Source: Promethearchaeota archaeon
GTDB lineage: Archaea; Asgardarchaeota; Lokiarchaeia; Sigyniarchaeales; SOKP01
DNA: 26,393 nucleotides
Assembly (NCBI GenBank): GCA_048939995.1
Contig: JBHLOY010000020.1
Coordinates: forward strand, 1 to 26,393
Direction of reading: 5' to 3'
Numbering within the stretch: position 1 is the first letter of the stretch; the number at the start of each line of letters is the position of its first letter. The position numbers and the translations under genes were made by a program. Under the pieces are notes generated by a model, which was given only the letters and a program-made list of their open reading frames with translations, was not told the origin of the DNA and made no database searches. Below, piece by piece: positions 21,321-23,996 of the stretch.

Positions 21321-21493
21321 ATTAAAATTAAATTTAAAATTCAATAAAAAGATTTTATAGGATATTTTTCAAGAATTAATTTTGTGTATTTTCCAGAAAA
21401 ATTATATTATCTCTAACATTCCTAAAGGCAGTAAATAATTCATTGAATTATAATAAGTACTCTTTTAGGTGGTATTAAGAAAGGGTGGATTTA

Positions 21494-23494
21494 TTGTCTG
21501 AAAAACAGACCATTGATGAAATAAGAATTGGAGTTTATATTTGTAGATGAGGAATCAATATTGGCGCATATATAGACTGTGATAAGATTAGAGATTTTGT
21601 AGCGCAAGTACCAAATGTAATTATAGCTAGAATCAATAACTTTACTTGTAGTGATCCAGGACAACAAATAATAAAGAACGATATCCTAGAATTAAACTTG
21701 AATCGTATTGTAGTAGGTGCTTGCACTCCTAAAATTCATGAACCTACTTATAGAGCCGTTTTAGCAGAAGCAGGCTTAAATCCCTACTATTTTGAGATGG
21801 TAAATTTAAGAGAACAATGTTCATTCGTCCATCAAGATGATATAGATAATGCTACTGAAAAAGCTAAGAGACTAATGCTTGCTGGTATAAATCGAGCAAG
21901 ATATTTAGAAGTTATACCCAGAAAAGAAATTCAAGTCACAAAAACCGCTTTAGTAATAGGTGCTGGAATAGCTGGAATGAATGCCGCCTTAGATTTAGCC
22001 AATCAAGGAATCCAAGTATATTTAATTGAAAAGGAACCCACAATTGGTGGAAAAATGGCTCAGTTGGATCGAATCTTCCCTACGGACGATTGTGGCATTT
22101 GAGTACTGGCTCCGATAATGGTTAATACTTCAAAACATCCTAACATAAATCTTCTAACATATAGCGAGGTCATAGAATTTGGAGGTATTAAGGGGAATTA
22201 TAAAGTCAAAATAAAAAAAAATCCCAGATATATTAATGAGAGTAAATGTACTGGATGCGGACTTTGCACTTTAAAATGCCCAATCAAAGTACCAAATGAA
22301 TTTGATCGTTATATTGGAGAAAGAGGAGCAATTTATATCCCCTTTCCTCAAGCAGTACCGAAATATGCGGTTATTGACGAAGAAATATGCATTAATTGCA
22401 AAAATTGTGAAAGAGAATGTCCGGCAGAAGCAATCAATTTTGAGCAAAAACCAAAAGTTATTGAACTTGATATTGGGGCTGTAATTCTAGCTACAGGTTG
22501 GGATGAGTACCCTATAATGGAAACAAACGAATACAAATATGGAATTTTCTCTGATATCATCACTCAAATAGAATTAGAAAGAATGCTAAGCCCTATTGGT
22601 CCTACTGAGGGTCATGTATATAGAATATCAGACGGAAGAGTACCTAGAAATATCGCTATGATTCAATGCGTCGGTTCAAGAAGTTTAAGAGGTAATCAGT
22701 ATTGTTCGGCTGTTTGTTGTAGTGTGGCATTAAAAAACGCTCAACTTTTAAAGCAGGAATACCCTGAAACTCAAACTACTATTTTTTATATTGATATTCG
22801 TACAACCGATAAAGGTAATGAAGAATACTTTAGAAAAATAAGAGAGCAGAACATTAATTTTATCAAAGGGAAACCAGGGGATATAAAACTTAATCCAGAT
22901 GGTACGATGAGACTATACTATGATAACTCGTTGCTAAATGATGTAGATTTCATGGATTTTGACTTAATAGTTTTATCCACTGGTATGGTTCCATCAAAGG
23001 GAACGCAAGAAATCATAAAAGTGATGGGTTTAACTAAGGATTCTAATGGCTTTCTTTCTGAAATACATGGTTGCTTAAAACCTCAAGAAACAAAGAATAT
23101 GGGAATATATATTTGTGGATGTGCTTCTGGGCCTAAAAATATACCCTATTCCGTCTCTACGGCATTAGCAGCTGCAAGTAAAGCAGCAACTTTACTTTCT
23201 CATGATACTATTAGTCAAGAATTAATTATCGCAGAAGTTAATGAAGCATTATGTATTGGTTGTCATCGATGCGAAAAACTTTGCGAATTTGATGCTATTA
23301 AAGTAAATGAAGCTAGCATTGCTGTTATTGACGAATTGCAATGTAAAGGATGTGGTGTATGCATTTCTTCTTGTCCAGCAAGAGCTTTAGATCTGAAATA
23401 TTATAGAGATAAGCAATTTGAAGAGAAAATAAAAGGAATAGTGATGGGTGAGACAAAAATTGCCAAAATAATTCCAACTTCTATGGAAGATTAA
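21494..23494 (+). CDS. hdrA: Heterodisulfide reductase subunit A, selenoprotein (Sec at UGA 21548-21550 and 22100-22102), 666 aa
   Basis: One continuous frame from TTG 21494 (GGTGG RBS at 21484-21488): RIGVYICR-U-GINIG (= CHCG motif), ACTP..HE, NLREQCSFVH, GAGIAG, FPTDDCGI-U-VLAPIM (= DCxxC/U), CVGSR, YCSAVCC, and ferredoxin motifs. It joins ORF-track pieces 21698-22102 and 22118-23494. Confidence 0.95.
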
Positions 23495-23514: not shown

Positions 23515-23940
23515 TTGAAAAATAAACAAGGACGAAGAATTATAGCTTTTGGTTGCGAAAAATGAGGTTATTCTGTAGCAGATCTAACAGGAACCACAAG
23601 AAAAACCTATTCTACTGATTTTCATATGATCAGAGTTAGATGCACAGGGAGGATTGGAATTCATTTGATTATGGAATGTTTTTTAAATGGGGCAGACGGA
23701 GTAGCCATTATATCCTGAAAAGAAGGAGAATGTGAATTTGGAAGAGGAAACCTTAATACTTATGAACATGTGAATTTTTTAAAGCGATTATTTAAACATA
23801 TTGGAATCTCAGAAGATCGAATTGAACAATATTTCTGTTCCGCAGCAGAAGTGGAGTATTTTCTTCAAGCGGTAAGAGATATAACCACTAAGATCAATGC
23901 ACTTCCTCCTCTACCTAAACTTAAATCCGAAATTGGATGA
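23515..23940 (+). CDS. vhuD: Hydrogenase iron-sulfur delta subunit MvhD/VhuD, selenoprotein (Sec at UGA 23563-23565 and 23716-23718), 141 aa
   Basis: AGGTGA RBS at 23501-23506, TTG at 23515. Translation: MKNKQGRRIIAFGCEK-U-GYSVADLTGTTRKTYSTDFHMIRVRCTGRIG...NGADGVAIIS-U-KEGECEFGRGN...IGISEDRIEQYFCSAAE...EIG*. Both UGA codons fall on conserved cluster-ligand Cys positions. Missing from the ORF track. Confidence 0.93.
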
Positions 23941-23996
23941 TCTTCCTAAATAAATTTTCGTTGGGGAGAGACAGACTCAAAGCATGAGCTTTCGGA
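23926..23996 (+). promoter_or_regulatory. Eukaryote-like SECIS element overlapping the vhuD stop codon
   Basis: AUGA at 23937-23940; UCUUCCUAA (23941-23949) pairs with UUGGGGAGA (23961-23969); unpaired AAA at 23952-23954, 11 nt after AUGA; GA at 23970-23971; lower helix UCCGAAA (23926-23932) with UUUCGGA (23990-23996). Confidence 0.85.

Follow-up and report, generated by a model that had tools for sequence, protein, structure and literature searches.

Can one UGA codon end a gene and also belong to the signal that recodes other UGAs in the same gene? The question is raised by hdrA-vhuD, a gene pair of a Promethearchaeota archaeon in which four in-frame UGA codons are probably read as selenocysteine (Sec) and a fifth, which ends vhuD, lies in the AUGA of a SECIS element. 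This overlap was noticed in a sequence-only reading of the window (the whole stretch of DNA analyzed, 26,393 nucleotides), which proposed that the UGA does two jobs. We consider it quite likely that a single lokiSECIS, folded as a three-way junction, serves both genes, and that the core UGA is the last stop the element permits rather than a regulatory switch.

Genes and Sec machinery of the locus

The features of the locus are as follows (window positions).

21485-23494, + strand: hdrA-family gene, given as the longest frame left open when TGA is Sec; its true start is perhaps slightly downstream
23515-23940, + strand: vhuD/mvhD (frhD); probable TTG start after a GGTGA ribosome-binding site, Sec UGAs at 23563 and 23716
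23926-23932, + strand: 5' arm of the lower helix P1, pairing with 23990-23996; here inside the vhuD coding sequence (codons S-E-I)
23937-23940, + strand: AUGA of the SECIS core, its UGA being the vhuD stop; ATGA is invariant in the orthologue alignment
23941-23969, + strand: upper stem P2, 9 bp (23941-49 with 23961-69), and its 11-nt apical loop; from RNAfold and orthologue pair counts
23947-23949, + strand: in-frame TAA ("backup stop") at the top of P2, read from the sequence
23970-23971, + strand: 3' GA of the non-Watson-Crick core; GA or AA in every orthologue
23976-23988, + strand: P3 hairpin (CUCA, AAGCA loop, UGAG), inserted in the 3' strand, which would give a three-way junction; G-C/G-U in the loop
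23990-23996, + strand: 3' arm of P1, almost abutting P3
24028-25512, + strand: FrhB-family gene (ferredoxin and F420-binding domains) downstream of vhuD; no in-frame UGA

The hdrA and vhuD frames are both intact when TGA is read as Sec. The Sec UGAs of hdrA are at 21548 and 22100 and its stop codon is TAA; its match to the HdrA2 profile (E 4e-249) scores under the full-length cut-off because that model includes a fused MvhD. The vhuD product matches the VhuD profile (E 3.8e-36), and the gene closes with GAA ATT GGA TGA, the TGA (23938-40) being in frame. The four Sec UGAs sit 2390, 1838, 375 and 222 nt upstream of the SECIS element. In one vhuD subclade (L023, L028-L030) the second Sec site carries Cys (ISCH versus ISUK). 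The FrhB-family gene matches NF006807 at 271 bits, against a cut-off of 269.

The genome has the Sec machinery of a lokiSECIS host. It encodes SepSecS, a SelD that itself contains Sec, and a SelB/EFSec-like protein scoring just under the cut-off of the bacterial model. A tRNA-Sec gene with a UCA anticodon and a long variable arm (L194:75-231; G000:C23, about 113474-113630, + strand) lies just upstream of the SepSecS gene and near that of EFSec. It contains two introns of about 33 nt each, in the regions of the D-loop and the T-loop; in relatives the number is two, one or zero. ARAGORN and Rfam RF01852 both miss this intron-containing gene.

The SECIS element and its third helix

The text of Mariotti 2016 (PMC4989117) defines the lokiSECIS by an AUGA, a 9-bp stem, an 11-nt A-rich loop ending in G, and GA or AA. 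Positions 23937-23971 are a textbook case: the AUGA abuts a 9-bp stem, the 11-nt loop (23950-60) starts with the A-rich AUAAA and ends in G (23960), and GA follows the stem directly. The AAA of the loop (23952-54) lies 11 nt after the AUGA, and the penultimate loop base is C. A single such element is found near the 3' end of the hdrA-vhuD pair. RNAfold returns P1 and P2 with pair probabilities of 0.95-0.99 (0.69 for the top pair). The folding energy of the element is unremarkable by itself (z about -1), and we judged single-strand folding z-scores uninformative. All positions given in the sequence-only reading, from the AUGA, the 9-bp helix, the AAA and the GA to the lower helix and the TAA at 23947-49, are correct.

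Several lines of evidence indicate that the element is more than chance. A strict lokiSECIS pattern has 11 matches in the 3.75-Mb genome, compared with 0-1 in five shuffles; 8 of the 11 lie behind UGA-containing open reading frames (ORFs), and the vhuD element is the only one in the window. When vhuD 3' ends were aligned across 29 orthologues, covariation was found in P1, P2 and P3: double-sided changes occur in 12 of 21 pairs, including compensatory changes in 7 of the 9 pairs of P2, and 88.8% of the cells are paired. None of 500 shuffles reached the covariation score, although this control is inflated by the relatedness of the orthologues; slid controls scored far lower. The CCGAA of P1 is kept in orthologues that read it in another frame (as N-P-K rather than S-E) and in those where it is untranslated, which indicates that the constraint acts on the RNA. 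Taken with the lokiSECIS features, this covariation bears out the description of the element as eukaryote-like, of the Loki type.

Searches with covariance models divided. An Rfam scan of the element gave no SECIS-family match at E values up to 10, whereas a model built from Asgard prxL elements alone ranked the vhuD element first in the window (27.8 bits, rough E 0.0015), as its sole match with E below 0.01. The core and P2, rather than P3, carry this match, which comes from an unfiltered search of the window; in the genome-wide search with the same model, the element was not among the candidates listed (150 of 4811 scored).

The sequence-only reading described a lower and an upper helix and omitted the hairpin at 23976-23988. 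RNAalifold, unprompted, predicted all three helices from the vhuD orthologue alignment, and 3 of the 5 pairs of P3 show double-sided change, one a complete rewrite from G-C to A-U. When cores were picked blind to the flank, 138 of the 144 Asgard elements, drawn from three gene families, had a hairpin of 4 bp or more within the 26 nt after the core, versus about 70 (at most 82) in dinucleotide shuffles and 15 in an interval 40 nt further on; once similar elements are removed, the count is 70 of 73. G-C or G-U is present in 68 of 72 P3 loops but in half of those from shuffles, and of 482 decoy cores in the genome, loosely defined, no more than 34 are followed by such a hairpin. P3 was found independently in vhuU and prxL alignments (RNAalifold on MAFFT), after selD and in other Asgard families. 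The vhuU and prxL alignments yielded P2 and P3 and not P1, because the spacing of P1 shifts, and their P3 stems show conservation or wobble pairs more than strong covariation. In the single-sequence ensemble of the window P3 has a pair probability of about 0.4, and our automatic picking of hairpins settled on a different pairing in this 3' flank.

A k-junction is a k-turn with a third helix in the non-bulged strand (PMC4005666); it has tandem G-A pairs at the base of its NC helix, coaxial T and C helices and the cross-strand hydrogen bonds of a k-turn. At the level of secondary structure P3 occupies the position of the third helix, and at the level of sequence alone GA (23939-40) lies opposite GA (23970-71), as the tandem pairs would require, the 3' side being AA in many orthologues. 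The full RNA is thus predicted to be a k-junction-like three-way junction of P1, P2 and P3.

Other elements of this kind were observed in the genome and its relatives. A small ORF of about 65 aa (L037:737-934; G000:C36:9636-9833, + strand) has a hydrophobic segment, a GGG-UGA and a lokiSECIS whose AUGA is the stop. It has no NCBIfam match and 16 homologues among 100 genomes of the family, 15 of them with one in-frame TGA; the five inspected have GG(G)-UGA and a SECIS-like element about 60 nt downstream. It is a candidate unlisted selenoprotein with a SelK-like layout, and would bear on the minimal distance for recoding. Two paralogous ORFs of about 160 aa (L031:441-932, - strand; L032:422-904, + strand) carry a tandem UGA-UGA (...GC-UU-E... 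and ...AD-UU-A...); three-armed lokiSECIS elements follow 120-135 nt downstream. A strong three-armed SECIS at G000:C17:215767-215853 (+ strand; 49 bits with the prxL model) has no obvious Sec ORF upstream; a short zinc-ribbon-like frame ends in TGA 42 nt before its core. Behind Sec-containing vhuD or vhuU at L044, L046, L047, L141 and L145, the canonical AUGA/GA core is seemingly absent and the hairpins are kept, so these elements are possibly degenerate SECIS variants. Finally, the variable arm of the tRNA-Sec is capped by a UGCGRA-type loop, loosely like the P3 loop (YGCRA), which may be a common stable-loop motif.

Stop codons at and before the SECIS core

The vhuD stop coincides with the core UGA in 5 of 30 orthologues. 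In 14 it is a TAG 5 nt upstream of the core and in 10 a TAA 22-23 nt upstream; in the remaining one (L024; G023:C2) the ORF passes the core in a different frame and ends within the apical loop (at -13). On the DNA tree the overlapping orthologues occupy three separate positions nested among relatives with the upstream TAG, which suggests that the overlap in vhuD arose at least three times independently. The clade of the window reads the vhuD tail in a shifted frame: the ancestral TAG is still present, out of frame, in the closest relative (L002) and has decayed to TTG in the window. A frame change in the A-rich tail would have displaced this TAG and left the core UGA as the next stop in frame for the ORF. 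The overlap in vhuD is lineage-specific, comes and goes among relatives, and is incidental here. It is not conserved across orthologues, and a special role for it in vhuD is unsupported: 24 of the 30 use a TAG or TAA 5-23 nt upstream, which is largely the situation in which the sequence-only reading would have called the overlap incidental.

A wider survey of vhuD orthologues, vhuD paralogues, vhuU and prxL across the phylum covered 145 elements. The stop is at the core in 67, upstream in 77 and beyond the core in 1, counts that overstate the evidence since related genomes are not independent. About 20 loci were left unparsed by the script, most of which by eye show the core and P3 too, and two doubtful distant parses were dropped. 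Overlap is the rule in vhuU (48 of 55 parsed elements, from several Asgard families and including this genome), and such deep conservation may mean that some genes gain from the overlap. In this genome four elements overlap a stop: those of the window vhuD, of vhuU on contig C17, of a vhuD paralogue on C8 and of the small ORF on C36. Judged from trees and tables, ORFs arrived at the overlap about nine times and ran through once, although two of the three frames would run through the core. This suggests that ORFs are tolerated up to the core and selected against when they cross P2; selection would permit extension to the core and almost never through the upper stem, and the core UGA would be the last tolerated stop.

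How the UGAs are read may depend on distance. A single Loki-type SECIS of the hdrA-vhuD bicistron would direct Sec insertion at four distant UGAs; a UGA too near the element would not be recoded, as a ribosome there would sit on the element or melt it, and the core UGA would by default mean stop. The hdrA frame, which closes about 440 nt from the SECIS, ends in TAA or TAG in 29 of 29 orthologues and never in TGA, the codon that ends 16% of long ORFs genome-wide. With other genes included, UGA stops near a SECIS occur 0, 7, 9 and 30 nt before the core. Among UGAs that are clearly recoded, the one nearest to its SECIS belongs to vhuU, at a distance of 84 nt; a small uncharacterised family perhaps comes down to about 60 nt. 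These stop and recoding distances fit the published minimal-distance rule. Because UGA also terminates at 7, 9 and 30 nt, proximity would explain termination without any overlap. The UGA at 23938-40 is thus terminator and part of the core, as proposed, and should not be read as Sec.

The sequence-only reading also saw in the overlap what would be a selected regulatory device: the terminating ribosome melts the SECIS and so transiently stops Sec insertion in hdrA-vhuD. Unfolding by the ribosome is plausible. With the core UGA in its A site, a ribosome must by its footprint cover the 5' strand of P2, which favors such a device, as do the recurrence of the overlap in about nine independent arrivals and its conservation in vhuU across Asgard families. 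However, termination 5 nt further upstream would melt the core to nearly the same extent, so melting is to be expected in the TAG orthologues too and does not make the overlap special. That the core UGA is the last in-frame stop to be tolerated accounts, in turn, for the recurrence. As 25 of 30 vhuD orthologues lack the overlap, a transient switch-off of upstream insertion finds no support, and we regard a device of this kind as unlikely.

Other readings of the terminal UGA fare worse. It is very unlikely that the UGA is itself recoded, with a third Sec in a C-terminal EIG-U-SS and the TAA as the true stop. The TAA is in frame three codons later, and nine overlapping vhuD paralogues share the 2-codon extension, but neither Cys nor Sec is conserved at the position of the terminal UGA, the two closest relatives would gain 32 and 19 unrelated residues, and the UGA cannot occupy the A site and the folded core simultaneously. 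Moreover, such stops are equally common where they are out of use: an in-frame TAA or TAG within four codons past the core is found in 13 of 24 non-overlapping orthologues and 6 of 20 vhuD paralogues of that kind, versus 2 of 5 overlapping orthologues and 2 of 48 overlapping vhuU elements. The backup TAA is absent from the two closest relatives, and hypothetical readthrough would add 2, 3, 19, 32 or 47 residues in the overlapping orthologues and 3-145 in vhuU. Being neither conserved nor tied to the overlap, the TAA at 23947-49 is not a backup stop, as had been suggested, but a by-product of the stem sequence. Readthrough of both stops into a VhuD-FrhB fusion has an almost negligible likelihood; the spacer in the window is otherwise open and in frame with 24028, but in L002 the readthrough frame ends after 32 codons and is out of frame with the next gene, and most orthologues terminate earlier at TAG or TAA. 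A terminator or processing hairpin in this place, between vhuD and the FrhB-like gene, would agree with the lack of an Rfam SECIS match and the modest folding z-score. This is extremely unlikely, however, given the invariant AUGA/RA core and loop adenines, the same motif after vhuU, prxL and selD, and the position of most strict genome matches behind UGA-containing ORFs. These three readings were rejected.

Comparison with known systems

The arrangement closely resembles that in the text of Mariotti 2016 (PMC4989117), where one element past vhuD, partly overlapping the coding sequence, serves both hdrA and vhuD, and hdrA never ends in UGA. Nor is a stop within the AUGA new: that text reports it for VhuU.1, and the text of Huang 2024 (PMC11227280) states that UGA stops in Lokiarchaeia "often overlap" the AUGA. 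The overlap therefore repeats the 2016 observation in another gene, and differs in being in vhuD and lineage-specific; the penultimate loop base is C, the usual one being A (PMC4989117, text). The same text proposes the minimal-distance model for Sec recoding, of which our orthologue survey is a natural test, with the stop 0, +5 or +23 nt away from the same SECIS.

The element likewise agrees with the type I eSECIS-like elements of Asgard archaea in the text of Huang 2024 (PMC11227280), which have a GA_[G/A]A core, an upper stem of 7-15 bp and a loop of 8-20 nt, and one of which is common to hdrA and frhD. Their model consists of core, upper stem and loop, and they found that neither the internal loop nor the lower stem has conserved nucleotides; here the internal-loop region holds a conserved third helix with a G-Y loop. 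Neither P3 nor a three-way junction is described in the main texts, as distinct from figures and supplements, of PMC4989117, PMC11227280 and a 2026 review, and a literature search for Asgard or Lokiarchaeal SECIS elements with a three-way junction or k-junction gave nothing beyond a reference-list entry in Huang 2024. Going by these texts, the conserved third hairpin is our sole addition to published work, and it is a refinement.

We give slightly less than an even chance to a broader proposal: that the functional Asgard SECIS is a three-way k-junction, an architecture absent from the literature, whose G-Y-loop third helix is needed for Sec insertion and may contact the SECIS-reading factor, and that eukaryotes lost this arm when SBP2 arose. 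A functional P3 would mean that an essential part is missing from present Asgard SECIS models and from reporter designs, and P3 would offer an RNA target for finding the SBP2 equivalent and for tracing the origin of the eukaryotic SECIS; going by the texts of PMC4989117 and PMC11227280, Asgard archaea have no SBP2.

The k-junction of the TPP riboswitch (Wang et al. 2014, PMC4005666) differs in that the bulged strand is longer here (about 5 nt before the UGA) and 3-4 unpaired nt separate the core from P3. The GAA_A bulge and three consecutive S-S pairs of the methanogen-type eaSECIS are absent from the predicted structure. The eukaryotic type I SECIS has two helices with a plain internal loop; in its place the element has a third helix, and it further differs in its shorter upper stem, its polycistronic action and the lack of an Rfam match, the failure of eukaryotic models on Asgard elements being already reported in the texts of PMC4989117 and PMC11227280. 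What it shares with the eukaryotic type is the AUGA/GA kink-turn-type core, the apical adenines, the 3' location and the distance requirement.
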